A stretch of 64,000 nt of DNA from Armatimonadota bacterium (GTDB lineage Bacteria > Armatimonadota > UBA5829 > DTLH01). Location of the stretch: the NCBI GenBank assembly GCA_038207085.1, contig JBBRAE010000013.1, positions 1-64,000 of the forward strand, read 5' to 3'. How positions within the stretch are numbered: the first letter of the stretch is position 1; every line of letters starts with the position of its first letter. The position numbers were made by a program, and so were the translations under genes. Under the pieces are notes generated by a model that was not told where the DNA came from, did no database searches, and was given only the letters and a program-made list of their open reading frames with translations. Positions 4,175 through 32,813 of this stretch are shown piece after piece.

Positions 4175-4882
4175 ATGGCTCTGATTGAGATCAATGATCT
4201 TACAAAGACCTACAAGATCGGAAGCGTCGAGGTTCGTGCGCTTCGTGAGGTCACTTTCAACATAGAGCAAGGCGAGTTCGTCGCAATAATGGGGCCTTCC
4301 GGGTCTGGTAAGTCGACGCTCATGAACCTGCTTGGCTGCCTGGACAGGCCGACCTCTGGGACATATATGTTAGACAGCGTGAACGTCGGACGACTGAGAG
4401 ACGCGGCGCTCGCATATATTCGAAACATCAAGCTTGGGTTCGTCTTTCAGAGCTTCAACCTGCTGCCGGGGCTCTCCGCGCAGCGCAACGTTATGCTGCC
4501 GATGCTCTACGCCGACCGTAAGAAAGACAACAAACGCGCGAGGGTCCTGCTTGAGTCAGTAGGCCTCGGCGGGCGGACTCACCACACACCGATGCAGCTA
4601 TCTGGTGGCGAGCAACAGCGGGTAGCGATCGCGAGGTCGCTCATCAACGACCCGCCTCTCATACTTGGAGATGAGCCGACCGGAAACCTCGACACCACGA
4701 CGAGTATTGAGATCATGGCGACCTTCCAACGATTGAACGATGAGGGCAAGACCGTCATCATCGTTACCCATGAGCAGGACATCGCGATGCACGCCAAGCG
4801 CATTCTCCGATTCCGTGACGGTCAGCTGGAATCCGACGAAGCGGTCACAGAGCGACTGATCATAGAACAGAAGACGGTTTAG
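4175..4882 (+). CDS. ABC transporter ATP-binding protein (MacB/LolD-like)
   Basis: Walker A GPSGSGKST, LSGGEQQR signature, Walker B/D-loop ILGDEPTGNLD, VTH switch. Confidence 0.95.
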   Translation: MALIEINDLTKTYKIGSVEVRALREVTFNIEQGEFVAIMGPSGSGKSTLMNLLGCLDRPTSGTYMLDSVNVGRLRDAALAYIRNIKLGFVFQSFNLLPGLSAQRNVMLPMLYADRKKDNKRARVLLESVGLGGRTHHTPMQLSGGEQQRVAIARSLINDPPLILGDEPTGNLDTTTSIEIMATFQRLNDEGKTVIIVTHEQDIAMHAKRILRFRDGQLESDEAVTERLIIEQKTV

Positions 4883-5130
4883 TCTTCCGTGCTCTCTGTC
4901 GAGATCGGCCGTCCAAGCTGTTCAAGGCACTCGGGGGCAAACTTGCACCATGCTGCACAAGCCATGTCGTTTTGCGGGTTCACCATGTACTCCCCGCAAC
5001 TCGGGCATTTGCGCCGAAGGTCGTCTTTGAAGAACTCCACCGGTTTGCCGCAATGCATGCACGGCAACTCGAATATATCCTCCGGCTTCCAATACCGAAG
5101 ATCCTGTCCAGGGCAATTGCTATTGTTCAT
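4879..5130 (-). CDS. Small Cys-rich (zinc-ribbon/Fe-S-like) hypothetical protein
   Basis: CPGQD..WKPEDIFE.PCxxCG..VEFFKDD..RKCxxCG..NP..D..CA.WC...C; GGAGG/GAGG SD upstream; divergent from the acs cluster. Confidence 0.7.
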   Translation of the reverse strand: MNNSNCPGQDLRYWKPEDIFELPCMHCGKPVEFFKDDLRRKCPSCGEYMVNPQNDMACAAWCKFAPECLEQLGRPISTESTED

Positions 5131-5190
5131 AGTCCTCATCCTCCCCACTCTGATATTGTACAACATGCTCAGCAGTTAAACATGGAAGTG

Positions 5191-5334
5191 GCTAGTCGTC
5201 AGTCGCTAGTGGGTCAATTGCCATGCATTACGCCATTCGGGATTCGGAAATCCCGTCTTAGCTTTGGGGTGGCGATTCGGAAATCGCCACCCAACAACAA
5301 GTGACCCACTAGCGACTAGCGACTGACGACTAGC
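5191..5334. repeat. MITE/REP-like palindromic element, family A, with heptamer-repeat inverted ends
   Basis: ~26 bp terminal inverted repeat (gctagtcgtcagtcgctagtgggtca); core 5208-5295 recurs inverted at 58360-58471. Confidence 0.85.
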
Positions 5335-5475
5335 TACTCTCCTTGGTAATCCCGTGCTCTTTGTGTAAAGTCGTTGCAAAGTGCACGAAAAGCATTGCAT
5401 GGGCCCCCATGCGTGGTGTAGTGTAGTATTGCAAGAAGGTGGGATTCGCCTGCTTGATGGATTGGAAGGACTGCA

Positions 5476-6270
5476 ATGGCAATCAAGTTAGCGGTTTCTG
5501 GAAAAGGTGGAGTCGGTAAGTCGACGCTCGCGGGGACGCTTGCGCTGCTCTTTGCGGCGGACGGCAACCGTGTGCTCGCGGTAGACGCTGACCCCGATGC
5601 AAACCTGGCATCGGCGCTTGGCATGCCTGAAGATCTCAAATCATCCGTTCGGACAATAGCCCAGGAGAGACAGCTTATCGAGGAACGAACCGGCGCTAAA
5701 GCCGGACAGTTCGGCCAGATATTCTCCATCAACCCCGATGTCTCTGGGATCGCAGAGCAGTATGGAGTGCGGCACCAGGGGGTCGACCTCTTGGTGCTGG
5801 GAGCCGCCCAGCAGGCTGGCGCAGGATGCGCATGTCCTGAGTCGGTGCTGTTGAAGTCGCTTGTTATGGACCTTGTGCTCGGACGCGGTGACGTGCTCGT
5901 GCTTGATATGGAAGCCGGAATCGAGCACCTTGGACGAGGGACAGCCACGGGCGTCGACCTGATGATCGCAGTCGTCGAGCCTGGTCAGCGAAGCTTAGAA
6001 ACAGCCGAGCGCGTGCGAGATATGGCGCGGGGCATCGGCATCAAGCGCATTGCCGTGGTGCTGAACAAATCGATCGATCCCGTAGAAGACCGTGCGTGGC
6101 TTGAGTCGAGCTTTGGATCTGACTCGGTGATTGGGGTGATCCCCTACGACACCAGGGTGATCGCCGCCGACCGCAAATGCTTGTCAATCCTGGATATGGG
6201 TGACGAAGCCCTGCTTTCTCCGTATAGAAAGATATACGAGACTATAAGAGACAACTATCAGAAGTCGTAA
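5476..6270 (+). CDS. cooC: CooC-type nickel-insertion ATPase (CODH maturation)
   Basis: GKGGVGKS, DADPDANL, GCAC Ni-binding motif, DMEAGIEHLGRG. Confidence 0.9.
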   Translation: MAIKLAVSGKGGVGKSTLAGTLALLFAADGNRVLAVDADPDANLASALGMPEDLKSSVRTIAQERQLIEERTGAKAGQFGQIFSINPDVSGIAEQYGVRHQGVDLLVLGAAQQAGAGCACPESVLLKSLVMDLVLGRGDVLVLDMEAGIEHLGRGTATGVDLMIAVVEPGQRSLETAERVRDMARGIGIKRIAVVLNKSIDPVEDRAWLESSFGSDSVIGVIPYDTRVIAADRKCLSILDMGDEALLSPYRKIYETIRDNYQKS

Positions 6271-6321
6271 CACAAGCTTTATCGAATTTACTAATTTATC
6301 GCAAGCGAGGTATCTTTAGAG

Positions 6322-7371
6322 ATGAGTTTCGAGCCCAAATGTATGGCAACAGCCATCGGCAGCCTTCCTCACAGCAATGCTGAGGACGCAATCACGGTAA
6401 TTCTTGCTAGTATCCCCGACGCACCCATCTGGCCGCAGCTTCCTTCAACAGGGATGAACGAGCAGATGGAGGTGCAGTACTCCGAGAACCTTCCCGATGT
6501 CGTCATCGACCGCGAGAAGGAGAGAATGTACATCGACACCACCGACGAGACCTTCGCGGGCATCAGCACCTTCATGGAGAAGTTCGCGATGGACGAGGTG
6601 GACTATTTCGCCATCTCCCCCGAGTTCTCAAAGGGCATCTACGCGATGGAGGCCGCTCTCCAGGCAGCAGGGGCAAGCCGCCCGTTTGTCAAAGTCCAGA
6701 CCACCGGGCCGATCAGCTTCGGTCTGACAATCGTCGACGAGAACAAACGCGCAATCTACTACAACGATATGTTCCGCGATGCGGTCGTCAAAGGCCTCAC
6801 AATGAAGTGCCGCTGGCAGATCCGCAGGTTCAAGTCTTTTGCTGACAACGTGATCTGCTTCATCGACGAGCCGATTCTCTCGGCGTTTGGAAGCTCCACC
6901 TATGTGAGCGTCAACCGTGAGGACGTTGTGTCGATCCTAAGTGAAGTGATCGAAGCGATCCACGCTGAAGGCGCAGTCGCCGGTATCCACTGCTGTGGCA
7001 ACACCGAGTGGTCGATCCTCGTAGACGCGGGCGTTGACATCGTCAACTTCGACGCGTTCGACTACGGCGACACCATCGCACTCTACCCCGAAGCTATGAA
7101 GCGCCACCTTGAGGCTGGTAAGTATCTGGCCTGGGGCGTCATTCCCACAAGCAGCGAGAAGATCCAGAGCCAGACCGTCGAGAGCCTCGTCGCGAAGTTC
7201 GATGCGGGCGTCGACAACCTCGCCAAAGCGACTGGGCTTGACAGAGATATGATCATCAAGCAGGCCTTTATCACCCCGTCCTGCGGCACGGGCTCACTCC
7301 CCGTCGCTGACGCTGAACTCGTCTTCAGCATGCTCGGACAGGTCAGCAAGGCTCTTAGAGAAAGGCAGTAA
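6322..7371 (+). CDS. Core (folate-independent, MetE C-terminal-like) methionine synthase, MesB-like
   Basis: TAIGSLPH, WPQLP, KVQTTGPISF, FIDEP, Zn ligands IHCC and TPSCG; ~350 aa single TIM barrel of the URO-D/MetE superfamily. Confidence 0.72.
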   Translation: MSFEPKCMATAIGSLPHSNAEDAITVILASIPDAPIWPQLPSTGMNEQMEVQYSENLPDVVIDREKERMYIDTTDETFAGISTFMEKFAMDEVDYFAISPEFSKGIYAMEAALQAAGASRPFVKVQTTGPISFGLTIVDENKRAIYYNDMFRDAVVKGLTMKCRWQIRRFKSFADNVICFIDEPILSAFGSSTYVSVNREDVVSILSEVIEAIHAEGAVAGIHCCGNTEWSILVDAGVDIVNFDAFDYGDTIALYPEAMKRHLEAGKYLAWGVIPTSSEKIQSQTVESLVAKFDAGVDNLAKATGLDRDMIIKQAFITPSCGTGSLPVADAELVFSMLGQVSKALRERQ

Positions 7372-7460
7372 TTAGCCATTAACTGTTAGCCGTTAGCAAC
7401 CAGAACTGTGGTAACCACCAATCTGCCTGCTAATGGCTAACAGCTAACCGCTAACAGCTC
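7372..7460. repeat. Inverted heptamer-repeat hairpin (ttagcNN / gctaaNN)
   Basis: ttagcca-ttaactg-ttagccg-ttagcaa ... gctaatg-gctaaca-gctaacc-gctaaca; related to 13899-13988. Confidence 0.75.
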
Positions 7461-7463
7461 AAA

Positions 7464-8228
7464 ATGAGTTTTACAATCGCAGTTACAGGTAAAGGCGGCG
7501 TTGGGAAGACCACTCTTTCTTCGCTTATCGTGCAGTATTTGGTCGCAAACGGGCGAACTCCGGTGCTGGCGGTCGACGCAGATTCCAATGCAAATCTTCA
7601 CGAAGCGCTTGGGGTCGAGTTCAGCGAAAGCGTCGGAGCGATCCGCGAGGACGCGAAGAGCAAAGTGGCTGAGATGTCGGGGATGGGCAAGCAGGAGTTT
7701 CTGGATATGAGAGTCCAGGAAGCGCTTGTCGAGCAGAACGGCTACGATATGATCGTTATGGGACGCCCGGAAGGGCCAGGCTGCTACTGCTATGCTAACA
7801 ACGTGCTCCGCGATGTGATCCAGAAGCTTTCGCAGAACTACAAGTATCTTGTGGTCGACACCGAGGCTGGAATCGAGCACGTTTCGCGGCGCACGCTGAT
7901 CAAGATCGACCTGCTCTGCGTGGTTTCTGACTGCTCAGTGCGCGGAGTTCGCACTGCAAAGCGAATCGCCGACCTCGCCGACGAGATGGGAACGCCTGTC
8001 ACCCGCCGCGGACTGATTGTGAACCGCGTGCCGGGAGGCGTCCTCCCTGAAGGCGTCAAAACCGAGGCCGAGTCTACAGGGCTGCCGCTTCTCGCAGTCA
8101 TCCCGATGGACGAAAACGTTGCTGCGATGGACGCGGGCGGTATGGCGATCGGTGATATCCCTGCTGATTCGCCGACCAGACTTTCTCTCAAAGCGCTCCT
8201 CGATGAGGCGCTCACGGCGGCTGTGTAA
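7464..8228 (+). CDS. CooC/AcsF-type nickel-insertion ATPase (ACS maturation)
   Basis: GKGGVGKT, MGRPEGPGCYC motif, DTEAGIEH. Confidence 0.9.
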   Translation: MSFTIAVTGKGGVGKTTLSSLIVQYLVANGRTPVLAVDADSNANLHEALGVEFSESVGAIREDAKSKVAEMSGMGKQEFLDMRVQEALVEQNGYDMIVMGRPEGPGCYCYANNVLRDVIQKLSQNYKYLVVDTEAGIEHVSRRTLIKIDLLCVVSDCSVRGVRTAKRIADLADEMGTPVTRRGLIVNRVPGGVLPEGVKTEAESTGLPLLAVIPMDENVAAMDAGGMAIGDIPADSPTRLSLKALLDEALTAAV

Positions 8229-8279
8229 CACATTTACCAATTTGCACTTTGTATTTCCCTAACAAGGAGTTCTTTGCCA

Positions 8280-10229
8280 ATGGCAACCGAAATCGAAAAA
8301 CCGAACAACGGCGGTGTATCACGTGACCCGGCCATTAATGAGATGGTCGAAGTCGCAAAAGCCGCGGGTATTGACACAGTCTGGGACCGCCACAAGTCGA
8401 TGGGAGTCCCGTGTAAGCTTGGCTCAACCGGCGTCTGCTGCAAGATCTGCCACATGGGCCCGTGCCGAATCACGCCGAAGTCACCCAAAGGCATCTGCGG
8501 AGCCGACGCGGACACGATCGCCGCGCGCAACCTGCTTCGTGAGATCGCCGCGGGAACAGCCGCGCACTCAGACCACGGGCGCATGCTTGTCAGAACGCTG
8601 AAGCTGGTTTCTGAGGACAAAGGCGGCGACTACAAGATCACCGACCCCGGCAGGCTGCACAACGCGGCACAGTTCTTCGAGATCGAGACCGAAGGCAAGA
8701 CTGATCTGCAAATCGCGGGTGAGCTCGCTGACTTCTTCATGGGACAGTTCGCCTGGAGCGACAAACCGAACAAAACCCTGAAGCGCGCTCCTGAGAAGCG
8801 GCAGGCGGTTTGGAAGAAGCTTGAAATCGAGCCCCACGGCATCGATTCGGCGGTCGTCGAACTGATGCACCGAACGCACATGGGCGTCGACCACGACTAC
8901 AGGCACCTCATTATGGGCGGCCTGAAGTGCAGCATCGCTGACGGCTGGGTCGGTTCGATTATCGCGACTACAGTTTCTGACATTCTCTTCGGAACCCCGA
9001 AACCGCTTAGGAGCAAAGTGAACCTCGGCGTGCTTTCTGAGACCAAGGTCAACATCATCGTCCACGGCCACGAGCCGACTCTCTCTGAGATGCTCGCCTG
9101 GGCGTCAAAAGACAAGGAACTCCTGGACTACGCAAAGAGCAAGGGCGCGGACGGCATCAACATCGCCGGTATCTGCTGCACCGCAAACGAAATCCTGATG
9201 CGCCACGGTCTGCCGATCGCCGGAAACTTCCTCCAGCAGGAGCTTGCGATTCTGACCGGCGCGGTCGAGATGATGATCGTCGACGTTCAGTGCGTTATGC
9301 CGAGCCTTCCTGAAATTATGAAGTGCTTCCACACCAGGCTCGTCAGCACGTCGGAGATCGCCCAGACTTTCAACGCCGAACAGATCACGTTTGAGGTCGA
9401 GAAGGGCTTCGAGCACGCGAAGTCCCTCATTCGTGGGGCGATCGACAACTTCGCCAACCGCAACAAGGCCAAAGTTACAATCCCTGACCACTCGATGGAC
9501 CTGGTAGCCGGGTTCTCCAACGAGACGGTCTTCCATATGCTCGGTGGACGATTCCGGAGCACATTCAGACCGCTGAACGATGCGATCATCGACGGCCGAA
9601 TCAGAGGCGTCGTCGGGATCGTCGGCTGCAGCAACCCCAAGGTGAACACCGACGACCTGCACGTCACGCTGACGTCTGAGCTTATCAAGCGAAACGTGCT
9701 GGTGCTTCAGACCGGATGCTCCGCGATCGCCTGCGCGAAAGCTGGGTTCCTCACCCCTGAAGCCGCACGCGAACTTGCCGGTGAGACGCTTGCCGAGGTC
9801 TGCGAAGCAGTCGGTATTCCGCCTGTGCTGCATATGGGAAGCTGTGTTGATAACAGCCGAATCCTGCTTGCCGCGACAAATGTTTTGATGGAAGGTGGGC
9901 TCGGCGAGGATCTATCCGATCTGCCTGTAGCTGGAGCCGCACCGGAGTGGATGAGCGAGAAGGCGGTCGCGATCGGCCACTATTTCGTCGCTAGCGGACT
10001 CTACGTTGTCCTCGGACAGCCGCTCTATGTGGGGGGCAGCGAGAACGTTACCAAGCTGCTCACAGAGGAGATGGAAGGCCTCACCGGCGGCAAGTTCGCC
10101 TGGGAGCCCGATCCCGTCAAGGCGGCGGACATGATAATGGAGCACATTGAAAAGAAACGCGACGCGCTCGGCATCAACCAGAAACGGGAGCGTAAGCTGC
10201 TTGATATGAAGGAGCGCAGAGAGCTGTAA
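8280..10229 (+). CDS. cooS: Anaerobic Ni-Fe carbon monoxide dehydrogenase catalytic subunit
   Basis: D/B-cluster C..GxxGVCCxxCxMGPC...GICG; C-cluster ligand motifs HGH, GICCT, GCSN, TGCS, HMGSCVDN; WMSEKA; AAGGAG SD. Confidence 0.96.
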   Translation: MATEIEKPNNGGVSRDPAINEMVEVAKAAGIDTVWDRHKSMGVPCKLGSTGVCCKICHMGPCRITPKSPKGICGADADTIAARNLLREIAAGTAAHSDHGRMLVRTLKLVSEDKGGDYKITDPGRLHNAAQFFEIETEGKTDLQIAGELADFFMGQFAWSDKPNKTLKRAPEKRQAVWKKLEIEPHGIDSAVVELMHRTHMGVDHDYRHLIMGGLKCSIADGWVGSIIATTVSDILFGTPKPLRSKVNLGVLSETKVNIIVHGHEPTLSEMLAWASKDKELLDYAKSKGADGINIAGICCTANEILMRHGLPIAGNFLQQELAILTGAVEMMIVDVQCVMPSLPEIMKCFHTRLVSTSEIAQTFNAEQITFEVEKGFEHAKSLIRGAIDNFANRNKAKVTIPDHSMDLVAGFSNETVFHMLGGRFRSTFRPLNDAIIDGRIRGVVGIVGCSNPKVNTDDLHVTLTSELIKRNVLVLQTGCSAIACAKAGFLTPEAARELAGETLAEVCEAVGIPPVLHMGSCVDNSRILLAATNVLMEGGLGEDLSDLPVAGAAPEWMSEKAVAIGHYFVASGLYVVLGQPLYVGGSENVTKLLTEEMEGLTGGKFAWEPDPVKAADMIMEHIEKKRDALGINQKRERKLLDMKERREL

Positions 10230-13200
10230 TGAGTAAGATCATCGCCTCAAGCGCCATAATCGGCGCGCATAAGATATACAAACAAGCCGAGGAGATTGTC
10301 GCAAAGACGATAGCCGAGAAAGGCGCGGATAGCCCGGTAGCGTTCCCTGACACTACCTACTATCTGCCCGTGATCTACTCGATGCTCGGCACCAGGGTGG
10401 AAAAGCTCTCGGACATGCAGTCTGTTCTGGACGAGTGCAAGAGCCTTTTACCTCCGATCCCGTCCGACGACGTTTGGCTCCCCTATCTTGGTGGAACGCT
10501 CGACGCCGGTATGTCGACGCTTTTCGCGTTCGAGCTGATCGAGGCGTGCAAGTATCTGATAGGCCCGAACCCCGTTGATGGAATCTGGCTCGGGGCTGCG
10601 AGTGACGTTATCATCCGCGAGCGTGGAATCGAGTTCGTCGACGGCTCAGCTCCTGGTTTCGCCGCAGTTGTCGGCGCGGCTCCGGACAAAGAGACCGCCG
10701 TCAAGATCGCCCGCGAGCTTCAGGAGAAGAACCTCTACGTCTTCATAGCCGGTAACACCAACGGCGTATCGTTTGCCGAGCAGCTTGTGGAAGCCGGTGT
10801 CCAGATAGGCTGGGACACCAGGCTTGTTCCCTTCGGCAAAGACATATCCGCTGCGATCTATGCGCTCGGGTTTGCGAACCGCGCGGCGCTTTCTTTTGGA
10901 GGCGTTCAGCCCGGTGACTACGCTCGAAATCTGAAATACAACAAAGACCGAATCTTTGCGTTCGTAATGGCGCTTGGCGAGGTCGACGCAGAGAAGTATG
11001 CGGCAGCCGCCGGAGCGATCTCCTACGGCTTCCCAACGATCGCCGACACCGACATCCCGGAGATTCTGCCGACCGGTATCTGCACCTACGAGCACGTAGT
11101 CTCAAACGTTCCGCTTGACCGAATCGTCGAGAAATCGCTTGAAGTGCGCGGCTGCAAGATCAAGATCGCCAAAGTCCCGATCCCCGTAGCTTACGGCGCT
11201 GCCTTTGAGGGTGAGAGAATCCGCAAAGAGCAGACCTACGTCGAGTTCGGCGGAAACAAGACTCACGCGTTTGAGTATGTCACAACCAAAGACCTAACCG
11301 AGGTCGAAGACGGCAAGATCACCGTCGTCGGCCCAGAGATTGACGACGTTCCAGAGGGCACCGCGCTTCCGCTTGCGATTTGGGTGGAAGTTGCAGGCCG
11401 CAAGATGCAGTCGGACTTTGAGTCGATCCTGGAGCGCCAGATCCACCACCTCATAAACGGCGCGGAGGGCGTCTGGCATATGGGCCAGCGCGATATCGTC
11501 TGGACCCGAATCTCAAAAGCCGCCAAGGAGAAGGGCTTCAAGATCGCCCACTATGGCGAGATTTTGCACGCCAAGCTCTTGAACGAATACCCCGCCATCG
11601 TCGACAAGGTTCAGGTGACGCTCTTCACCGACCTGAAAGAAGTCGAGGAGCGAATCATTGAGGCCAGAAGAGTCTACCGCGAGAGGAACCTGCGCGTTGA
11701 GTCGATGACCGACGAGACCGTCGACACGTTTTACTCGTGCCTGCTCTGCCAGAGCTTCGCGCCGAACCACGTATGCGTCATTACACCCGAGCGACTCGGA
11801 CTCTGCGGCGCTTACAACTGGCTCGACGGAAAGGCCGCCTACGAGATCGACCCCACAGGCCCAAACCAGCCGCTCACCAAGGGCGAGTGCATCGACCCCG
11901 TCCGCGGCCAGTGGAAAGACATTAACGATTACGTCTACGCAAACTCCAAGCAGTCGATCACGTGCTTCAACGCCTATTCGATGCTTGAGGACCCGATGAC
12001 GAGCTGTGGCTGCTTCGAGGCTATCGTCGCGCTCCTCCCTGAGTGCAACGGCGTCGCTATCGTCAACCGAGAGTATCCCGGTGACACACCGATGGGTATG
12101 CGGTTCTCCTCGCTTGCTGGTATGACCGGCGGCGGCCAGCAGACTCCGGGATTCATCGGGATTGGCAAGGCGTATATCTCCAGTCGCAAGTTCATCTCCG
12201 CTGAAGGCGGACACAAACGAATCGTCTGGATGCCTGCTGAGCTTAAGGCAAGCCTGAAGGAAGATCTCGCGCACATCGGCGAGCAGCTTGGAATCGAAAA
12301 CTATGCCGACCTTATCGCGGACGAAAACGTCGGGACAGATTCCGCGGCGATCAGCGCACATATGGAAAAGGTTGGCCACCCCGCGCTTTCGATGTGGGAC
12401 GTGACCCAGCCGTCGCCTGAAGCCACCGAGGTCGACGTGAACCGTGGCAAAACCGCTGAAGCTCCTGCAGCACCTGTAGCCGCTGCGACCGCGTCTGCTC
12501 CGGCTCCGGCAAAAGAGACAGCACCAGTCGCAGTCGCCGAAAGGCCTGCGCCCGAGCATGCCAAGATTCCCGCAAACTCGACACCAGTTCACGCAGCACC
12601 TTCAAACGGCGGGAACGGTGGAAACGGTGACGGACTCTCTCATGTGATTTCCGTCATCGAACAAGTGCGTGCCAACGGGCTTCCCACGGCAAACCCGGCA
12701 TCGACTCCCGAGGAGCAGATGGCCGCCCTTCAGATGTCGACCGCTCTAAACTTGCTCACTGCAGGCGCGAATATGCTCCTGATGTATAGCGGTGCGCTCG
12801 GCGTTACGCCCGTAGCGGCGAAAGCTGTTCCATTGCCAGTCGAGACTTCTGTCGAACCAACCCCGGTTGTCGAGACCCAGAAGATATCGGAAGTGCTCGA
12901 AGCACCGCAGAAGCCGATCACATCGGCCAGCATCATCGTGCCGACCAGCTTCGGTGTGCCTGGCGAGGCGTTCGCTGGCACAGTTCGTGAAGTGACGCTC
13001 GGTGGGTCTGGCACGCGGACGTCTTCGGTGACAATCGGCGGCGCAAACGCCCTGCCCTTCCGCCACTTCGAAGGAAACACCGGCCGCAAGCAGGTGATCG
13101 CTATGGAGGTCTTCGACAAAACGCCGAGGAACTATCCCAACTCCCTGCAAGAGGCATTTGGAAGTCTGATAAACGATCCCGCTGCGATGGCTAAATACTG

Positions 13201-13897
13201 CGTTGAGCAGTGCGGCGCTGAGATCATAAGCGTCCGACTTGATGGAACTCATCCCGACAACGGCGATGCATCCATCGAGGCGGCCTCTGAGATCGTCGGA
13301 AAGGTGCTAAAAGCCGTCGGCGTGCCGATCATGGTCACCGGGCCCGGTCACTTCGAGAAGAACAACGCGGTTATGAAGCAGATCGCAAGCGACTTCGCGG
13401 GCGAGAACCTGCTGCTTAACTGGGCTGAAACCGACAACTACAAGACAGTCGCCGCCGCCGCGATGGGCTACAACCACTGCGTAGTCGCCCAGTCGCCAAT
13501 CGACGTCAACATGGCGAAGCAGCTGAATATCCTGATGACCAACATGGGGCTTGCGCCTGAGAAGATCGTCATCGACGCCTATACCGGCGCAATCGGCTAC
13601 GGTCTTGAATATACCTACTCCGTTATGGAGCGAATCAGGGCGTCGGCACTCACAAACGACGCGATGCTTGCGATGCCGATCATCGGCACACCGGGATTTG
13701 AAGTCGCACGCATCAAGGAGAGCAAAGCCCCCGAGAGTGCATTCCCGATCTGGGGAAGCGAGACCGAACGCGGGGCGTTGCTTGAGATATCGACCGCGAT
13801 GAGCCTCCTAAACGCAGGCGCGGACGTTCTGGTGATGTATCACCCCGTAGCCGCCCGCACAGTGAAGCGCAAAATCGCAGAGATGAACGAAAAATAG
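10229..13897 (+). CDS. acsB: Acetyl-CoA synthase (AcsB) fused via an Ala/Pro linker to the CoFeSP small subunit (AcsD)
   Basis: A-cluster FYSCLLCQSFAPNHVC..LGLCG and PMTSCGCFE in aa 1-~730; AcsD-like TIM barrel (IGGANALPF, AMEVFD, SPIDVNMAKQLN, GYGLEYTYSVMERIR) in the last ~310 aa; no intervening stop. Confidence 0.93.
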   Translation: MSKIIASSAIIGAHKIYKQAEEIVAKTIAEKGADSPVAFPDTTYYLPVIYSMLGTRVEKLSDMQSVLDECKSLLPPIPSDDVWLPYLGGTLDAGMSTLFAFELIEACKYLIGPNPVDGIWLGAASDVIIRERGIEFVDGSAPGFAAVVGAAPDKETAVKIARELQEKNLYVFIAGNTNGVSFAEQLVEAGVQIGWDTRLVPFGKDISAAIYALGFANRAALSFGGVQPGDYARNLKYNKDRIFAFVMALGEVDAEKYAAAAGAISYGFPTIADTDIPEILPTGICTYEHVVSNVPLDRIVEKSLEVRGCKIKIAKVPIPVAYGAAFEGERIRKEQTYVEFGGNKTHAFEYVTTKDLTEVEDGKITVVGPEIDDVPEGTALPLAIWVEVAGRKMQSDFESILERQIHHLINGAEGVWHMGQRDIVWTRISKAAKEKGFKIAHYGEILHAKLLNEYPAIVDKVQVTLFTDLKEVEERIIEARRVYRERNLRVESMTDETVDTFYSCLLCQSFAPNHVCVITPERLGLCGAYNWLDGKAAYEIDPTGPNQPLTKGECIDPVRGQWKDINDYVYANSKQSITCFNAYSMLEDPMTSCGCFEAIVALLPECNGVAIVNREYPGDTPMGMRFSSLAGMTGGGQQTPGFIGIGKAYISSRKFISAEGGHKRIVWMPAELKASLKEDLAHIGEQLGIENYADLIADENVGTDSAAISAHMEKVGHPALSMWDVTQPSPEATEVDVNRGKTAEAPAAPVAAATASAPAPAKETAPVAVAERPAPEHAKIPANSTPVHAAPSNGGNGGNGDGLSHVISVIEQVRANGLPTANPASTPEEQMAALQMSTALNLLTAGANMLLMYSGALGVTPVAAKAVPLPVETSVEPTPVVETQKISEVLEAPQKPITSASIIVPTSFGVPGEAFAGTVREVTLGGSGTRTSSVTIGGANALPFRHFEGNTGRKQVIAMEVFDKTPRNYPNSLQEAFGSLINDPAAMAKYCVEQCGAEIISVRLDGTHPDNGDASIEAASEIVGKVLKAVGVPIMVTGPGHFEKNNAVMKQIASDFAGENLLLNWAETDNYKTVAAAAMGYNHCVVAQSPIDVNMAKQLNILMTNMGLAPEKIVIDAYTGAIGYGLEYTYSVMERIRASALTNDAMLAMPIIGTPGFEVARIKESKAPESAFPIWGSETERGALLEISTAMSLLNAGADVLVMYHPVAARTVKRKIAEMNEK

Positions 13898-13898
13898 G

Positions 13899-13988
13899 GT
13901 AGCTATTAGTAGTTAGCTGTTAGCAACCAAACTCGCACCAGCATGACAATCTGGTTGCTAACGGCTAATAGCTAGCTGCTAGCTGCTC
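13899..13988. repeat. Inverted heptamer-repeat hairpin
   Basis: tagctat-tagtagt-tagctgt-tagcaac ... gctaacg-gctaata-gctagct-gctagct; shares gttagcaacca..caatctg..tgctaa with 7372-7460. Confidence 0.75.
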
Positions 13989-14001
13989 CCAAGGAGTTGA
14001 A

Positions 14002-15342
14002 ATGGCACTTTCAGGCTTAGATATATTCAAACTGTTACCGAAAACCAACTGCGGCGAGTGCGGCGTGCCTACATGCATGGCATTCGCGATGAAGCTTGCA
14101 TCGAAGGGCGCGGAACTTGCTGCTTGTCCGTATGCGTCCGATGAGGCAAAATCCAAGCTCGGAGCCGCGAGCAAGCCGCCGATCAGGCTCGTCAAGGTCG
14201 GCACTGGCGACACAGAAGTTCAGGTCGGCAACGAAACCGTGATGTTCAGGCACGAGAAGACGTTCGTCCACCCGACGGCTATCGCTATATCGTTCACCGA
14301 CGACCAGGCCGGGGACGTGCTCGCCCATCAGACCGCTGTCGTTCGCGACTACTGCCTTGAGCGAGTCGGCGAGGAATTGAAGATCGACCTCGCGGTTGTC
14401 GACAATGTCACGGGCGAGGCGGAACCTTTCGTCGCCGCAGTCAAGGAAGTCGCGGGGACGACCGGCAAGGCGATCGTTCTGCAGAGCTCTTACCCCGAGG
14501 TGATCGAGGCGGCTCTTCAGGCCATTCCGGGGCAGCGACCGCTCATCCACGCAGCGACACCCGAAAACATCGACGCAATGGCCGCGCTTGCGCTCAAATA
14601 CAACGCGCCCATCGTCGCCAGAGCCAACACGCTCGACGAACTTGCCGCGCTTACTACAAAGCTTGCGGCGCTTGGCGTTCAGGATATTGTGCTCGATATC
14701 CCGGCTGACAACCCGGCCGCTATGATGCAGTATAATACAATCATCAGGAAAGCCGCTCTGAAGGGCAGCGTTGAGCCGATGGGCTACCCGGTGATGAACT
14801 TCCTTATGGGAATGGACCTGCCGTCGCTCGTCGCAGACGCATCGACGCTCATAAGCAAGTATTCATCGATCCTCGTTATCGACACGATAGCCCTCCAGGC
14901 ACTGCTTCCGATGATGATGCTCAGACAGAACATCTACACCGACCCGCAGAAACCAATTCAGGTTGAGCCGAAGATCTATCCCATCGGCGAGGCAACAGAG
15001 AACTCACCGATCCTTGTGACGACGAACTTCTCGCTCACGTATTTTATTGTGTCGGGTGAGATCGAGAACTCTGGCGTCCCGGCGCACCTCGCGATTGTCG
15101 AATGCGAAGGAATGAGCGTCCTTACGGCATGGGCTGCCGGCAAGTTCTCCGGTGAGAAGATCGGCGCATTCATCAAGCAGTCAGGCCTTGAAGACCAGGT
15201 TAAGACCAGAAAGTTGATCATACCTGGATACGTCGCACAGATCAGCGGCGAACTTGAGGAATCACTCCCAGGCTGGGAGATCCTCGTCGGCCCGCAGGAA
15301 GCAAGTGACCTCGGCGCGTATATGAAGATGCACGCGGCATAG
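14002..15342 (+). CDS. acsC: Corrinoid iron-sulfur protein large subunit (AcsC/CdhE)
   Basis: KTNCGECGxPTCMAFA...CPY [4Fe-4S], RQNIYTDPQKP, TTNFSLTY, SVLTAWAAGKF; AAGGAG SD. Confidence 0.95.
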   Translation: MALSGLDIFKLLPKTNCGECGVPTCMAFAMKLASKGAELAACPYASDEAKSKLGAASKPPIRLVKVGTGDTEVQVGNETVMFRHEKTFVHPTAIAISFTDDQAGDVLAHQTAVVRDYCLERVGEELKIDLAVVDNVTGEAEPFVAAVKEVAGTTGKAIVLQSSYPEVIEAALQAIPGQRPLIHAATPENIDAMAALALKYNAPIVARANTLDELAALTTKLAALGVQDIVLDIPADNPAAMMQYNTIIRKAALKGSVEPMGYPVMNFLMGMDLPSLVADASTLISKYSSILVIDTIALQALLPMMMLRQNIYTDPQKPIQVEPKIYPIGEATENSPILVTTNFSLTYFIVSGEIENSGVPAHLAIVECEGMSVLTAWAAGKFSGEKIGAFIKQSGLEDQVKTRKLIIPGYVAQISGELEESLPGWEILVGPQEASDLGAYMKMHAA

Positions 15343-15455
15343 CCCGGTTTATTCGTGAAGCGAATAAAGTTTTCGCTAACCCGGTTTATTCGTGAAGCGA
15401 ATAAAGCTCTTGCTAAGAGAGCATCATTCACGTTTCTCGTGAATAATGCGGGCTA
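15340..15455. repeat. MITE/REP-like element, family C (tagcccg...cgggcta)
   Basis: Internal hairpins tttattcg..cgaataaa and gcatNattcacg..cgtgaataatgc; 37-bp internal tandem duplication; second copy at 39572-39650. Confidence 0.85.
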
Positions 15456-15505
15456 ACAGATGTTGGCTTGTAGCTCATCGACCTGTGGTCGCAACTCATA
15501 AACTT

Positions 15506-17419
15506 ATGTATTCGATACAATTCTTACCTGCTGATATAGAGCTAAAGGTCCAACCCGGCACACTGGTCTCCGACGCCGCCATCATGGCCGGCCTCGAAGA
15601 CCTGCACCTGCCGTGCGGTGGCAAAGGCACGTGTGGGCGCTGCCTTGTTGAAGTTGTATCCGGCAATCCTATACAGACCTCTACCGCGCGCTTGGACGTC
15701 GCGCTTGCTGGTAAGCGGCTCGTTATGGCCTGCCAGACCAAGGTGAACGAAGACCTTGTAATCAGGATCCCCGAGCAACGGGAGACTGCGATGAGAGTAG
15801 TCGGCGACAGCCATTTTCTCGTCGGGGAAGAGTATCTGCCCGATCGCAGCGCGCTTTCGTCACTCTATCGAATAGAGAAGCTCACGGTACCTCCAGCTAC
15901 AATCGAAGAACACTACAGCGACTGGCAAAGGCTTGTCCGAGAGATCGGCGCAAGGATCGGGTCGAGCAACGTCACTACCGACGTATGGGTTCTGCGTTCG
16001 CTCGCCGATGCTCTTCGCGCCAAGGATGGGAAAGTCACCGTCGTTCTTCAGGAGGACGACTGCGGGTACCGCCTCTGGAACGTCAACGCAGGTCACAGCC
16101 CTGTCACCGTGTACGGGCTTGCAATAGACATAGGCACCACGACTATCGCGGTGCAGCTAGTCGATCTGAGCACCGGCGAAGTCGCCGCAAGCCGAACACT
16201 TTATAACGCGCAAATAGGTCGCGGCGCGGACGTTATTAGTCGGATCGATTATGCAAAGAACCCCGTTCGCCTGTTCGAGCTTCGCGAACTTGTTCTCGGC
16301 ACAATCAACGAACTGATTGAAGGCGTCGCGGAGGAAGTCGGGCTCCCGCCTGTGGAGATTCGAGCTGCGTTCATCGCCGGGAATACGACGATGGTGCACC
16401 TGCTCCTCGCGCTCCCACCCAAGCATATTCGCGAGACACCCTACGTTCCGACGGTGAACACCATCCCCACCCTTTTTGCGCCAGACGTTGGGCTTCGTAT
16501 CCACTCCCAGGCCGCGATCGCCTTTGCGCCCGGAGTCGGAAGCTACGTTGGCGGCGACATCACTTCGGGGCTTCTCTGCACTGAGATCCCAAAAAACCAC
16601 GACGAGGTCTTTTTGTTCCTCGACATCGGCACCAACGGCGAGATTGTGCTTGGAAACGCCGACTGGATGGTAGCCTGCGCCTGCTCCGCTGGCCCAGCCT
16701 TTGAAGGCAGCGGAATCAAGTGCGGTATGCGCGCGACAACAGGGGCGATCGAGTATATCGAAATATCTGACGATAAACGCGAAGTTCGCTATGATGTGAT
16801 CGGCGAAACCAAACCGGCGGGCATTTGCGGCTCCGGCCTCATCTGCCTGCTCGGCGAGTTGCTGGTAAGGGGCGTGATAGACCAGTCGGGACGCTTCAAC
16901 ATCAATCTCGACACCGACCGCATCATCACGCAGGGGTCGAACAAGGCGTTCGTCATTGAGTGGGCTGAAAACACCGAAAGCGGCGAGAACCTGGTCATCA
17001 CAGAGCCAGATATGGAGAACCTGATGCGCACCAAGGCCGCAATTTACGGCGCGTGCAGCCTCATTCTGACAAACGTGGGGATCGAATGGAACGCCATATC
17101 GCGAATCTACATCGCAGGCGGTTTTGGCAGATACATTCAGATAGAAGACGCCGTGCTAATCGGCCTTCTTCCCGATTTACCCTACGACAGGTTCACTTAC
17201 ATCGGCAACTCATCGCTTACCGGAGCTTATATCGCCCTGCTTTCTCGCGACCACAGGCAGTTGCTGAACGAGATCGCAGGCATGATGACCTATATCGATC
17301 TTAGCAGCGATTCGCACTACATGGACGCTTATATCAGCGCGCTTTTCCTGCCACACACTGATATGTCGCAGTTTCCATCGGTCGCAAAGCGCCTTACCGA
17401 TTTGAAATCTACAACCTAA
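15506..17419 (+). CDS. acsV: Corrinoid reductive activator (RACo/AcsV; 2Fe-2S + ASKHA ATPase)
   Basis: PCGGKGTCGRC ferredoxin, DIGTTT, GADVISRI, YVGGDI, DIGTNGE, SAGPAFEG, GICGSG; ATG 15506 chosen because the upstream ATG lies inside a repeat. Confidence 0.9.
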   Translation: MYSIQFLPADIELKVQPGTLVSDAAIMAGLEDLHLPCGGKGTCGRCLVEVVSGNPIQTSTARLDVALAGKRLVMACQTKVNEDLVIRIPEQRETAMRVVGDSHFLVGEEYLPDRSALSSLYRIEKLTVPPATIEEHYSDWQRLVREIGARIGSSNVTTDVWVLRSLADALRAKDGKVTVVLQEDDCGYRLWNVNAGHSPVTVYGLAIDIGTTTIAVQLVDLSTGEVAASRTLYNAQIGRGADVISRIDYAKNPVRLFELRELVLGTINELIEGVAEEVGLPPVEIRAAFIAGNTTMVHLLLALPPKHIRETPYVPTVNTIPTLFAPDVGLRIHSQAAIAFAPGVGSYVGGDITSGLLCTEIPKNHDEVFLFLDIGTNGEIVLGNADWMVACACSAGPAFEGSGIKCGMRATTGAIEYIEISDDKREVRYDVIGETKPAGICGSGLICLLGELLVRGVIDQSGRFNINLDTDRIITQGSNKAFVIEWAENTESGENLVITEPDMENLMRTKAAIYGACSLILTNVGIEWNAISRIYIAGGFGRYIQIEDAVLIGLLPDLPYDRFTYIGNSSLTGAYIALLSRDHRQLLNEIAGMMTYIDLSSDSHYMDAYISALFLPHTDMSQFPSVAKRLTDLKSTT

Positions 17420-17449
17420 AATCTGAAATCATCACTGGAGGTCTTTCAT

Positions 17450-18364
17450 TTGAAAAGCATTCTTGAAAGAGTCGCCGCTGGAGAAGTTCTTATCTCCGAC
17501 GGCGCGATGGGAACATTTCTGCAGGCCAAGGGTCTGCAGCCGGGCGAGTGCCCCGAGTCCTGGTGCGTGCTGCGCCCTGAGGACGTGAAAAGCGTAGCCG
17601 ATGCATACGTCGCGGCTGGCTGCGATATGATCGAAACCGACAGCTTCGGCGGCACCTGCTACAAGCTGCGCGAGTATGGGCTTGAGGACAAGGTTGCCGA
17701 CTACAATCGTGCCGCTGCACAGATTGCGAAGTCTTCTATCGGCGACAAGGGCTACGTGATTGCGTCGATCGGCCCCACGGGTCAGATCGTAGAGGACGAA
17801 GGCGGTATGGTCACCCCTGAAGGCCTTTACAACGCCTTCAAAGAGCAGGCTGTTGCGCTTGAAGAAGGTGGAGCAGACGCACTCTGCCTCGAAACGATGT
17901 CGAGCGTCACCGAGGCCGTACAGGCCATCAAAGCCGCGAAAGAGAACACGAAGCTACCCGTGATCTGCACGTTCACCTTCGAGCCGGGAGCCCGCGGGTT
18001 CCGCACGATGATGGGAACCGACCCAGCGACAGCCGTAACTGCTGCAGTTGAGGCGGGAGCTGATGTCGTCGGAGCAAACTGCGGAAACGGCATCGACAAC
18101 ATGATCCAGATCACCAAGGATATGCGCGCGGCCGTCCCGAACACTCCTATACTCATCCACGCCAACGCCGGAATGCCTGTATTTGAAGACGGCAAGACCC
18201 TGTTCAAAGACACTCCCGAGCAGATGGCAGGAAAGGTCCAGGAGCTAGTCGCCGCCGGTGCGAATATCATCGGTGGATGCTGTGGCACCAACCCCAACCA
18301 CATCGCCGCAATGGCCGAAGCCGCACGTGGCAACGGTGGCTGCGGTTGCTGCTGTAATCACTAA
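17450..18364 (+). CDS. Stand-alone homocysteine S-methyltransferase domain (MetH N-terminal/BHMT family)
   Basis: SDGAMGT, SIGPTG, ETMS, GANCG, IIGGCCGT Zn ligands; no pterin or cobalamin domain; GGAGG SD; C-terminal GCGCCCNH. Confidence 0.9.
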   Translation: MKSILERVAAGEVLISDGAMGTFLQAKGLQPGECPESWCVLRPEDVKSVADAYVAAGCDMIETDSFGGTCYKLREYGLEDKVADYNRAAAQIAKSSIGDKGYVIASIGPTGQIVEDEGGMVTPEGLYNAFKEQAVALEEGGADALCLETMSSVTEAVQAIKAAKENTKLPVICTFTFEPGARGFRTMMGTDPATAVTAAVEAGADVVGANCGNGIDNMIQITKDMRAAVPNTPILIHANAGMPVFEDGKTLFKDTPEQMAGKVQELVAAGANIIGGCCGTNPNHIAAMAEAARGNGGCGCCCNH

Positions 18365-18372
18365 TTACCTTG

Positions 18373-18399
18373 TGGAGGTGGGTAATCAGCCCACCTCCA
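18373..18399. terminator. Hairpin between convergent genes (putative terminator)
   Basis: tggaggtggg-taatcag-cccacctcca 10-bp stem directly after the stop. Confidence 0.6.
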
Positions 18400-18497
18400 G
18401 CTATATTCTTCGCCAGATCAAAGTGTGTGTCTGAAACGGGAAACGCGTCAATACGTAGTGTCCGGTCGCTGTGCAGGACACTATGAGAGATGAGAAG

Positions 18498-19619
18498 TCA
18501 GACGCCCAGAACAAGATTATCCCTGTGGATCACCTCGTCAAAGTCCTTGCCCCCGAGAATCTGCTCGATTTCGGAAGTCTGTTTGCCGGCGATCTGGCGA
18601 ATCTCTGCGGCGCTGTAGTTTGCGAAGCCACGGGCGATTCGCTTGCCGCCTTCGTCGGATACAGCGATAAGGTCGCCGGGCTTGAACGTGCCGGTCACAT
18701 CAGTGATCCCCGCCGGGAGCAGGCTTTTGCCGCCAGTGACGAGCATATTCTTCGCGCCTTCGTTTACTACGACGGTCCCGCGGATTTGGGAAGAGAAGGC
18801 GATCCAGCGCTTTCGACTGGAAAGAAGTTTCAGACTTGGAGCAAACCTTGTACCGACTGAGAGGCCTTTGACGACTTCGGCGATGACGTTTTCTCGCCGC
18901 CCATCGGCTATCACCATCTCGACGCCGGATTTGTTCGCGATTTCAGCGGCGTCTAGCTTGGTGCGCATTCCGCCTGTTCCGGCGTCGCCCTGCGCGTCTC
19001 CGGCGATGGCGCGAATCTCAGGGGTAATCGCACGCACCTCAGGGATCAGTTTGCAGCCCGGGAGCTTTGGGTCACGGTCGCAGAGGCCGGGAACGTCGGA
19101 TAGGAGAATCAGAAGATCGGCACGAAGGCCCGATGCGACGAGCGCGGCGAGCGTGTCGTTGTCACCGAACTTGATCTCCTCGATTGCGACGGTGTCGTTT
19201 TCGTTGATGATCGGCACGCACCCGTATTCGAGCAGCATATTCATGGTGTTGCGGGCGTTCAGGTAGCGGGCGCGGTGCTTGAGGTCGTCGCGGGTTAGGA
19301 GAATCTGGGCCGCCGCGATTCCAGATTCGCTAAAAACCTCGGAATAGGTGTGCATCAAGAGGCCCTGGCCGATGGCTGCCGCTGCTTGCTTCTCAGGGAT
19401 GGTCTTCGGTCGCCCGTCGATGTTCAGGCGCTCGCGACCCGCACGAATCGCCCCTGAACTGACGAGCACGCACTCCATCCCCGACTGCACCTGATGCGAA
19501 ATCTGCTCGACCAGGCTTCTGATATATGCCCGGTCGATCTTGCCGCTGCCGTCGGTCAGCGTGCTCGTGCCGACCTTGATTACGATTCTTTTTGACCCGT
19601 TATTCTGCGTCTTCGTCAT
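18498..19619 (-). CDS. proB: Glutamate 5-kinase with PUA domain
   Basis: IVIKVGTS, VSSGAI, AAAIGQ, INENDT, FGDNDTL, GTGGM.TK, SLLPAG, HRDNL. Confidence 0.96.
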   Translation of the reverse strand: MTKTQNNGSKRIVIKVGTSTLTDGSGKIDRAYIRSLVEQISHQVQSGMECVLVSSGAIRAGRERLNIDGRPKTIPEKQAAAAIGQGLLMHTYSEVFSESGIAAAQILLTRDDLKHRARYLNARNTMNMLLEYGCVPIINENDTVAIEEIKFGDNDTLAALVASGLRADLLILLSDVPGLCDRDPKLPGCKLIPEVRAITPEIRAIAGDAQGDAGTGGMRTKLDAAEIANKSGVEMVIADGRRENVIAEVVKGLSVGTRFAPSLKLLSSRKRWIAFSSQIRGTVVVNEGAKNMLVTGGKSLLPAGITDVTGTFKPGDLIAVSDEGGKRIARGFANYSAAEIRQIAGKQTSEIEQILGGKDFDEVIHRDNLVLGV

Positions 19620-20960: not shown

Positions 20961-21032
20961 GGTTCAGAGTGGAGATTTCAGAGTGCAGAGCAGGGAAATG
21001 ACTCCCGTCGCTCTGCACTCTGAACTCTGAAC
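20961..21032. repeat. Inverted heptamer-repeat hairpin (ttcagag / ctctgaa)
   Basis: ttcagagtgcagagc ... gctctgcactctgaactctgaac. Confidence 0.7.
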
Positions 21033-22825: not shown

Positions 22826-22855
22826 TCGAACAGAACCCACCTTTCAGCTCGAAGC

Positions 22856-26516: not shown

Positions 26517-26529
26517 TTGTCCGCCCAGT

Positions 26530-28047
<1,518 letters not shown>

Positions 28048-28051
28048 ATCC

Positions 28052-30172: not shown

Positions 30173-30215
30173 ATTCTGTCCTTATAGCGACAACGGCGTA
30201 AGAGCTGAAACTCCA

Positions 30216-31084: not shown

Positions 31085-31087
31085 ATC

Positions 31088-31612: not shown

Positions 31613-31616
31613 AATC

Positions 31617-32678: not shown

Positions 32679-32784
32679 ACTTGTGATAGCACCGCCGACC
32701 TTTGGGGTTACGTGCGTAGTTTGTTCACGCACCCTGACGGCACAAAGCTTATGAAGTCTTAAGCATCCCCTAGCCGCCATACCT

Positions 32785-32813
32785 ATTATATTTGCTGGGC
32801 TGAGGCGTGTCAA
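32785..32813 (-). promoter_or_regulatory. Perfect consensus sigma70 promoter for nuoH-N
   Basis: TTGACA-cgcctcagcccagcaaa (17 nt)-TATAAT on the minus strand, ~105 nt upstream of nuoH. Confidence 0.8.

Follow-up and report, generated by a model that had tools for sequence, protein, structure and literature searches.

The closest described relative of the system reported here comes from Dehalococcoides mccartyi, which has an incomplete Wood–Ljungdahl pathway and whose core-MetE protein is a methylcobalamin:homocysteine methyltransferase for which direct methyl transfer from AcsCD has been proposed (Deobald 2020, PMC7005905). The family, since named MesB, was found only in proteomes that contain AcsC or AcsD (Price 2021, PMC7857596), and both papers, which cite Zhuang 2014, propose that methyl is passed directly from the methylated corrinoid iron–sulphur protein (CH3-CoFeSP) to homocysteine after cleavage of acetyl-CoA. 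Here we describe a 12.9-kb operon on the + strand, positions 5476-18364, of a 64-kb stretch of DNA from an Armatimonadota bacterium (the whole stretch being referred to below as the window). The operon encodes a carbon monoxide dehydrogenase/acetyl-CoA synthase (CODH/ACS) with its CoFeSP, a MesB-like protein and a second, stand-alone homocysteine methyltransferase (HcyMT), but lacks acsE, the gene for the methyltransferase acting between methyltetrahydrofolate and CoFeSP.

The MesB-like protein of the window shares with its D. mccartyi counterpart a single MetE-like barrel and an H-x-C...D...C zinc site, and in both cases AcsB, AcsC and AcsD are present without AcsE. D. mccartyi, however, is described as having no CODH, MetF or MetH and as carrying mesB in an S-adenosylmethionine (SAM)-cycle operon rather than in an acs cluster (PMC7005905), whereas the mesB of the window shares its operon with the genes for CODH, AcsV, both CooC proteins and another methyltransferase, of the PF02574 family, in a genome that keeps a folate route. 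In some methanogens mesB and the CoFeSP genes acsC and acsD appear to form one operon, which was taken as evidence of a direct functional link (Price 2021, section 8 and Fig 3B legend), but those operons are archaeal and the same section and legend mention neither CODH nor a second homocysteine methyltransferase.

Two further systems, and one recent report, invite comparison. With the Moorella-type acs cluster (acsA-acsB-acsC-acsV-cooC/acsF-acsD-acsE) the operon shares AcsA, AcsB, AcsC, AcsD, AcsV, CooC-type chaperones and the bacterial AcsB N-terminal domain, but acsE is missing, AcsB and AcsD are fused and two homocysteine methyltransferases are added. A three-part split MetH with a RamA-like activase was reportedly described by Price in 2018; the genome of the window likewise has separate PF02574, AcsE-family methyltransferase (MeTr) and B12-binding proteins and a RACo/RamA-like activase, although its homocysteine module stands at the end of a CODH/ACS operon and belongs to an acs-associated clade. 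Finally, termite-gut Breznakiellaceae have CODH/ACS without Fhs or MetF, in one case without acsE, and the retention of CODH/ACS in these non-acetogens was read as a methyl supply for methionine (bioRxiv 10.64898/2026.10.06.756956). Unlike our own account, the text of that preprint invokes the formation of 5-methyltetrahydrofolate after Zhuang 2014, and the passages concerned make no mention of MesB or of a PF02574 gene in the cluster. Literature searches that took in the text of this preprint returned no description of a PF02574 gene in acs clusters, of an acsE-less operon class with two methyltransferases or of an AcsB::AcsD fusion; what we report is an operon class not described in the literature found, with a mechanism already proposed in print.

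Organization of the acsE-less operon

The genome of the window (designated G000; 3.35 Mb in 83 contigs, 100% complete and 2% contaminated) carries it on contig C13. Open reading frame (ORF) listing together with Pfam and NCBIfam scans resolved 5476-18364 as a single co-oriented operon of eight genes in the order cooC, mesB-like, cooC/acsF, acsA, acsB::acsD, acsC, acsV and HcyMT, with intergenic gaps of -1 to 104 bp. This is exactly the gene order given in an earlier reading made from the DNA sequence alone (the original prediction). Two of the genes encode CooC-type P-loop ATPases for nickel insertion: CooC1 (264 aa; 5476-6270) matches PF01656 (CbiA) with 70.6 bits, alongside ParA/NifH-type matches, and the cooC/acsF-type CooC2 (254 aa; 7464-8228) matches PF01656 with 62 bits. 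The acsA gene (8274-10229) encodes the 651-aa catalytic subunit of the Ni-CODH (TIGR01702, 696 bits against a cut-off of 478; PF03063, 580 bits), whilst acsC (14002-15342) encodes the 446-aa CoFeSP large subunit, with corrinoid and 4Fe-4S domains (NF003195, 566 bits against a cut-off of 306; PF03599 and PF04060). The 657-aa product of acsV (15446-17419) is the reductive activator of corrinoid protein, RACo, with matches to PF14574, PF17651, PF17650 and PF00111 and 620 bits on NF040756, which is below the cut-off of 800. The operon thus holds AcsA, AcsB, AcsC, AcsD, nickel chaperones and RACo, the set of a canonical acs cluster except AcsE. Whole-genome family searches gave no match to PF00809, PF02219 or PF01268 on contig C13, and hence no acsE, metF or fhs there, in agreement with the original prediction that none lies in or beside the cluster; folD, for which no genome-wide family search was made, was seen on a different contig, C32.

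AcsB and AcsD are encoded by one ORF of 1222 aa (10229-13897), in which an ACS region (residues ~1-757; NF040764, 1062 bits over residues 12-724) is joined by an Ala/Pro-rich linker of ~180 residues (~725-905; window ~12400-12950) to a CoFeSP small subunit (~908-1220; NF003376, 384 bits over residues 911-1219). Such sharing of a single ORF is seen in 42 of the 52 related loci that hold both proteins.

The two methyltransferases

The two METHYLTRANSFERASES of the operon are the 349-aa MesB-like protein (P0001; 6322-7371) and HcyMT (P0002; 17450-18364). P0001 found no Pfam match at E values up to 10, with PF08267 and PF01717 undetected, and nothing useful among PDB sequences; its match to NF002119 ('methionine synthase') is weak, at 32 bits against a cut-off of 258. 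Its AlphaFold model (pLDDT 95.6) is a single barrel of the MetE C-terminal type, within the MetE/UroD clan, and the best Foldseek matches were the C-terminal halves of MetE, the core MesD structure 3rpd and UroD. A length of 349 aa compares with the ~340 aa, without a folate-binding N-terminal domain, expected of MesB. Across 48 diverse relatives the zinc-site pattern HCDC is present, with H223, C225 and D244 invariant and C321 at least 90% conserved, and the spacing of these ligands is 2/19/77 as against 2/19/76 in D. mccartyi MesB, where they are given as HCDC at 214/216/235/311; the positions given for MesA and MesC differ from those of P0001 (Price 2021, PMC7857596). S14 and D182 are near-invariant and E183 is invariant; to judge by position only, the homocysteine-binding residues Ser15 and Asp177 of D. 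mccartyi MesB may have their counterparts here. The family is large, with 2092 representatives at 50% clustering and E<=0.001, and matches in the ESM Atlas carry the automatic name 'Methionine synthase family protein' (Thermodesulfobacteriota). Fold, motifs and gene context together point to a core methionine synthase of the MesB type, for which we use the term MesB-like; the original prediction had made the same call, and the zinc pattern bears it out.

HcyMT (304 aa) comprises a single PF02574 domain, 232 bits over profile positions 1-282 of 283, and no other. All of 20 cluster-linked homologues retain the cysteine triad of its zinc site (C211, C277 and C278) and D17, part of a DG motif near the N terminus. 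Two other identities were tried and rejected. With one domain in 304 aa the protein is not a full-length MetH (TIGR02082, 159 bits against a cut-off of 1011), and it falls below the cut-offs of the BHMT and MmuM models (NF005718, 240 against 338; NF007020, 102 against 215). Its C-terminal tail is rich in cysteine, with four to five in the last 10 residues (window 18330-18361), and may bind metal. Tailed copies occur only in G000, G023, G026, G027 and G018 (L023:16187-17107; L024:6520-7440; L025, - strand; L026:9141-10064); G028, G025, G008 and G006 have orthologues that lack the tail, as does every cluster-linked copy of other phyla.

A tree of 54 HcyMT sequences was built from hits aligned over at least 240 residues, which left out the truncated Acidobacteriota copies of loci L063, L064, L066 and L130; the partial copy of L131 was also dropped. 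In this tree, 36 acs-linked copies from many phyla and seven unlinked copies from the order of the window form a clade of 43 (support 95/96), whilst the stand-alone HcyMT proteins of G001, G003, G010, G012 and G013 form a separate supported clade. The HcyMT of the window is therefore of the acs-associated kind and not of the kind found in its own family, of which G000 has no copy. A prediction of the complex between HcyMT and the corrinoid domain of AcsC (residues 312-446), with alignments as input, scored 0.01 (mark 0.32) and was not used as evidence. On one Victivallales chromosome the HcyMT gene is doubled, with two almost identical copies in tandem upstream of mesB (L075:7985-9975).

A widespread class of CODH/ACS operons

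Searching one genome per species with an alignment of 12 MesB-like sequences brought up at least 597 relatives in 600 stretches, and the best 80 of these loci were compared. All 80 hold a MesB-like gene, 51-81% identical, and they are drawn from more than ten phyla: NC10, Acidobacteriota, Planctomycetota, Lentisphaerota, Verrucomicrobiota, Bacteroidota, Spirochaetota, Bacillota and others, with Aminicenantes, Syntrophales, Desulfovibrionaceae and Hydrogenedentota among the further groups represented. The list of MesB-bearing proteomes in Price 2021 (PMC7857596), Table S1, has no entries for Acidobacteria, Lentisphaerae, Bacteroidetes or Armatimonadetes and omits unclassified organisms; with that reservation as to the table, MesB-like proteins are newly seen here in the phyla that it does not list.

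Searched by tblastn with the G000 proteins, the 80 loci contained CooC1 in 72 cases, CooC2 in 67, AcsA in 66, AcsB in 58, AcsD in 53, AcsC in 49, AcsV in 41 and HcyMT in 42, many of the loci being cut by a contig end or by the 10-kb flank. AcsE/MeTr, MetF and FolD were found in none of the 80 (two MeTr queries, 1.23 Mb, E<=1e-3), in a search that did recover its positive controls. Forty loci span the stretch from mesB to acsV; 25 of them include HcyMT and most of the others stop within a few bases of acsV. Three orders recur, namely HcyMT-mesB-cooC-cooC-acsA-acsB::D-acsC-acsV, the order of the window with HcyMT last, and an Aminicenantes form that starts with a small corrinoid protein. Recurrence of the same order in tens of loci rules out a chance arrangement. 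In seven of the 80 loci (among them L120, L124, L131 and L133 from Aminicenantes, L108 and L064) the acsE-less cluster is adjoined by the gene for a small corrinoid protein of the MetH type, in some cases together with a RACo-like gene, a hint that the two corrinoid carriers share their methyltransferases.

We then have 36 carrier genomes that were searched whole; their completeness is not reported, and an absence here means 'not found'. As read from the locus comparisons, HcyMT lies in or adjoins the cluster in 25 of them, usually directly upstream of mesB, whilst a stand-alone HcyMT was absent from seven (mostly Syntrophales, Desulfovibrionaceae, Leptospirales and Ignavibacteriae) and in four was located elsewhere or could not be assigned. 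An AcsE-family match above the cut-off was obtained in four carriers, never on the contig of the cluster; in 26 the AcsE-type domain was found only inside MetH-like frames of at least 780 aa, and in four not at all. MetF was found in 29 and Fhs in 18, and 18 of the 36 have neither Fhs nor a family-level MeTr, including one Victivallales chromosome that is a single record of 8.6 Mb. CODH/ACS operons with two homocysteine-type zinc methyltransferases and no AcsE are a widespread, cross-phylum class, the carriers of which, judging by their gene content, often cannot feed CoFeSP from folate. The linkage of both methyltransferases to acsE-less CODH/ACS, suggested by the original prediction from a single locus, is conserved far beyond the lineage in which it was noticed.

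The folate route and split MetH

The label 'folate-free', which the original prediction had also attached to the system, is wrong for G000. On contig C32 an operon contains fhs, folD, a metF-type gene, a 132-aa ORF at the metV position (without a family match) and an AcsE-family MeTr (L008:9394-10323; NF005719, 304 bits against a cut-off of 259). Nor are split-MetH partners lacking elsewhere in the genome: contig C6 carries a RACo/RamA-like activase gene (L022:6379-8271) followed directly by that for a 209-aa corrinoid protein (L022:8303-8932; PF02607 and PF02310). Of three findings that the prediction had named beforehand as telling against it, two were thus made, a methyl branch with its MeTr and the split-MetH partners, whilst the third, a lack of conserved linkage, was not. 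What stands is the conserved linkage of the two methyltransferases to acsE-less CODH/ACS; what falls is the folate-free reading of this genome. On the opposite strand of C6, after the corrinoid protein gene, lies a gene for a 328-aa URO-D-family protein (PF01208, 52 bits; the whole span being L022:6379-10103), which could be a further corrinoid methyltransferase.

The G000 genome gave no match to MetE (PF01717) or to the MetH activation domain (PF02965), and PF02574 matched only twice, in HcyMT and in a 614-aa YitJ-like fusion of HcyMT and methylenetetrahydrofolate reductase (MTHFR) on contig C18:46567-48264 (L010, L013). Frames of ~610 aa resembling this PF02574-MTHFR fusion are seen in many relatives. 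All parts of a three-part split MetH are therefore present in G000 (homocysteine, pterin and B12 modules plus activase) and would be expected to work together. Since HcyMT is the only stand-alone homocysteine module in G000, and since its orthologues persist in ACS-free relatives, we infer that it probably serves both corrinoid carriers, CoFeSP and the split-MetH corrinoid protein.

A survey of 41 genomes, G000 and 40 relatives, places these genes in context; public names of near-identical proteins lead to metagenome-assembled genomes of Armatimonadota. The small corrinoid protein and MeTr are each found in 41 of 41 and a PF02574-type match in 40, but AcsC in only 11, and in none of the five relatives that belong to the same family as the window. 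ACS-less relatives, namely G001, G003, G013, G018 and G010, carry the fhs-(folD)-metF-metV-MeTr operon, and the activase and corrinoid protein genes are adjacent in five of six relatives' loci inspected. That the folate operon and split MetH occur without ACS indicates that they have housekeeping functions independent of it. A MesB-like gene is found in eight of the 41 genomes, all eight AcsC-positive, consistent with MesB occurring only alongside CoFeSP.

The window-type order with HcyMT after acsV is seen in G023 (the whole operon), G026 and G027; G008, assembled in 20 contigs, has the operon genes on three different ones. G015 and G032 instead have a canonical acsA-acsB-acsC-acsV-cooC-acsD-acsE cluster (L057:4329-15983; L056:1-6721), and no MesB-like gene was found in either, so both cluster types coexist within one order. 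The dedicated acsE of these clusters is 31% identical to the housekeeping MeTr, although the NCBIfam models do not separate the two (the G032 AcsE scores 309 bits).

Proposed fate of the methyl group

What, then, do the two methyltransferases do? Our preferred reading, held tentatively and at slightly under an even chance, is that the methyl group of CH3-CoFeSP is passed to homocysteine, and not exchanged with tetrahydrofolate, through MesB and the stand-alone HcyMT, with ACS cleaving acetyl-CoA. The methyl carrier would be CoFeSP, made up of AcsC and the AcsD part of AcsB::AcsD. We infer the following steps from gene content: ACS would split acetyl-CoA into CoA, CO and CH3-Co(III)FeSP; CODH would oxidise the CO and reduce ferredoxin; MesB, and probably HcyMT, would move the methyl group to homocysteine, giving methionine and Co(I); and AcsV would re-reduce any Co(II) formed. 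When methyl-cobalt gives up its methyl group to a thiolate, the reaction is strongly exergonic, and this would pull the otherwise unfavourable cleavage of acetyl-CoA, providing a rationale for the arrangement. G000 would have this route in addition to its folate-dependent split MetH in three parts, of which C32 holds MeTr and C6 the corrinoid protein and activase. As a mechanism, this puts into one operon a hypothesis that is in print and still to be tested (Deobald 2020; Price 2021), and the idea that MesB draws on CoFeSP is not new.

Several observations weigh against it. The use of CoFeSP as donor by core methionine synthases is put forward as a prediction still to be tested in the relevant section of Price 2021 (PMC7857596). 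Close orthologues of HcyMT (69-75% identical) are present in G018, G025 and G028, genomes 98, 91 and 98% complete in which no AcsC was found, so that HcyMT cannot depend on CoFeSP alone; and in G006 and G008 the orthologue lies beside a GDSL lipase gene, unlinked to acs genes. With its folate set and split MetH, G000 does not need a methionine route through ACS, and the MetH-like frames of at least 780 aa in 26 of the 36 carriers and MetF in 29 make for redundancy there too. The need for two enzymes for one reaction is unexplained, and a large operon is hard to justify for redundant methionine supply only. Lastly, no SAM or B12 riboswitch was detected in the 64-kb window or in seven related loci (Rfam, gathering threshold), so that no sign links regulation of the operon to methionine.

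The rival that survives best, and that may hold for G000 taken by itself, though we consider it doubtful, is that this is the carbonyl branch of an ordinary Wood–Ljungdahl pathway in which the C32 MeTr acts as AcsE in trans, ACS works towards acetyl-CoA and MesB and HcyMT merely tap CH3-CoFeSP for methionine. G000 does have Fhs, FolD, MetF/MetV and an AcsE-family MeTr (304 bits against the cut-off of 259), one that NCBIfam cannot tell from the dedicated enzyme of G032; G023/G076 has the same folate set, and exactly this shortcut logic is set out in the part of Price 2021 (PMC7857596) that discusses such methionine synthases. The distribution of MeTr is not that of an ACS-specific enzyme, however, with MeTr in 41 of 41 genomes against AcsC in 11 and the folate operon present in ACS-less relatives, and the sister genomes with a canonical cluster keep acsE inside it. 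Amongst the 36 carriers, 32 have no family-level stand-alone MeTr and 18 no Fhs. Moreover, no G000 match reached the cut-off of the formate dehydrogenase model TIGR01591, and this lack of an FdhA above cut-off argues against classical autotrophic acetogenesis in G000.

An unlikely alternative is that HcyMT is only the homocysteine module of the three-part split MetH with the 209-aa corrinoid protein, its position in the operon being mechanistically meaningless, and that MesB alone meets CoFeSP. This would fit with there being just two PF02574 genes in G000, with the universal presence of the corrinoid protein and MeTr and the frequent adjacency of the activase, and with the HcyMT orthologues of the AcsC-less genomes; one further copy, in G014, lies beside metX/metW. 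It does not fit with the many phyla in which HcyMT is in or adjoins the acsE-less cluster (the 25 of 36 genomes, usually directly upstream of mesB), most of these genomes having a fused MetH and no split system, nor with the acs-linked copies forming a clade of their own.

Flow in the opposite direction has also to be weighed. In an elaborated form that we regard as improbable, the methyl port of CODH/ACS would be formed by the pair of zinc thiol-methyltransferases in place of AcsE, and methyl would be carried by homocysteine/methionine or some other S-methyl compound instead of folate. Through one of the two enzymes an S-methyl or sulfonium compound would methylate Co(I)-CoFeSP, and ACS would fix this methyl group with CO derived from CO2, making a folate-independent, acetyl-CoA-forming electron sink. 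The AcsB::AcsD fusion would then represent an adaptation to that complex, as would, in this lineage, the cysteine-rich end of HcyMT. If true, this would place an S-methyl-fed electron sink in fermentative Victivallales, Bacteroidales, Clostridia, Acidobacteriota and Armatimonadota. Its simpler form, in which methionine, S-methylmethionine, SAM or a methylthio compound supplies the methyl group that one methyltransferase puts on Co(I)-CoFeSP, and ACS adds CO from CO2 as a folate-free electron sink for fermenters, strikes us as similarly improbable. The original prediction had offered the BHMT-like protein as a loader of CoFeSP, an alternative that our results neither favour nor disfavour. CODH is retained in full, along with two nickel chaperones, many non-acetogenic carriers already have MetH (26 of 36) and often no Fhs (18 of 36), and the presence of two different methyltransferases would make sense if one loads and the other unloads; for HgcA, a related corrinoid protein, it is SAM that has been reported to donate the methyl group. 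Yet no donor-specific gene is conserved in the loci, both enzymes retain zinc sites of the homocysteine type, and HcyMT scores below the cut-offs of the BHMT and MmuM models. Methyl transfer from a thioether to Co(I) is, in addition, strongly uphill.

Last, it is very improbable that CoFeSP exchanges methyl with pterin unaided, as archaeal CdhDE does (for archaeal CoFeSP pterin transfer without an extra enzyme is described in PMC13370988), in which case the absence of AcsE would say nothing about folate independence: the AcsD part does exceed the cut-off only of the generic delta-subunit model NF003376 and not that of the acetogen AcsD model NF040759, but it falls below that of the archaeal cdhD model TIGR00381 too (215 against 253), AcsB has the bacterial N-terminal CODH-binding domain PF18537, and the conservation of two homocysteine methyltransferases in the operon would be left unexplained.

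The preferred reading, transfer from CH3-CoFeSP to homocysteine, has consequences for the interpretation of genomes, as CODH/ACS genes are routinely read as a sign of the Wood–Ljungdahl pathway. Should a large class of CODH/ACS operons, spread across phyla, indeed do without the folate methyltransferase and connect to homocysteine instead, acetogenesis or CO2 fixation would in many cases have been wrongly predicted from metagenomes, the groups concerned being Acidobacteriota, Planctomycetota–Verrucomicrobiota–Chlamydiota (PVC) bacteria, Bacteroidota, Clostridia, Spirochaetota and Armatimonadota. Being compact, the operon offers a direct handle on the predicted transfer from CoFeSP to core MetE, with all the partners side by side and co-expressible, and the order to which the window belongs provides a natural comparison between a canonical acsE cluster, one that lacks acsE but bears mesB and HcyMT, and genomes that have the same split MetH but no ACS.

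Flanking sequences

The operon is followed by a terminator-like hairpin at 18373-18399 on the + strand, with an 11-pair stem (seven G-C pairs) and a T-rich tail; this is a pattern match only, and the strongest such site on that strand within 4800-18700. The operon is preceded by a TolC/HlyD/MacB efflux set; on its other side come proB and obg, a pair convergent with it, and housekeeping genes. The GC content of the operon, 0.56-0.59, is near that of its flanks. Among sequencing runs bearing on window 9000-18500 no RNA set was listed, only DNA runs of one sediment study, one of which may be the source. An empty insertion site was looked for, but the two flanking genes, proB and that for the MacB-type permease, lie on different contigs in five genomes of the same family, with the result that neither insertion nor loss of the operon is demonstrable from them. 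Further downstream, on the - strand, the window contains two adjacent ORFs of ~600 aa without a Pfam or NCBIfam match (21032-22840 and 22856-24643) and, 6 kb from the acs operon, a partial run of complex I genes of the NuoH, I, J, L, M and N types (24960-32813).

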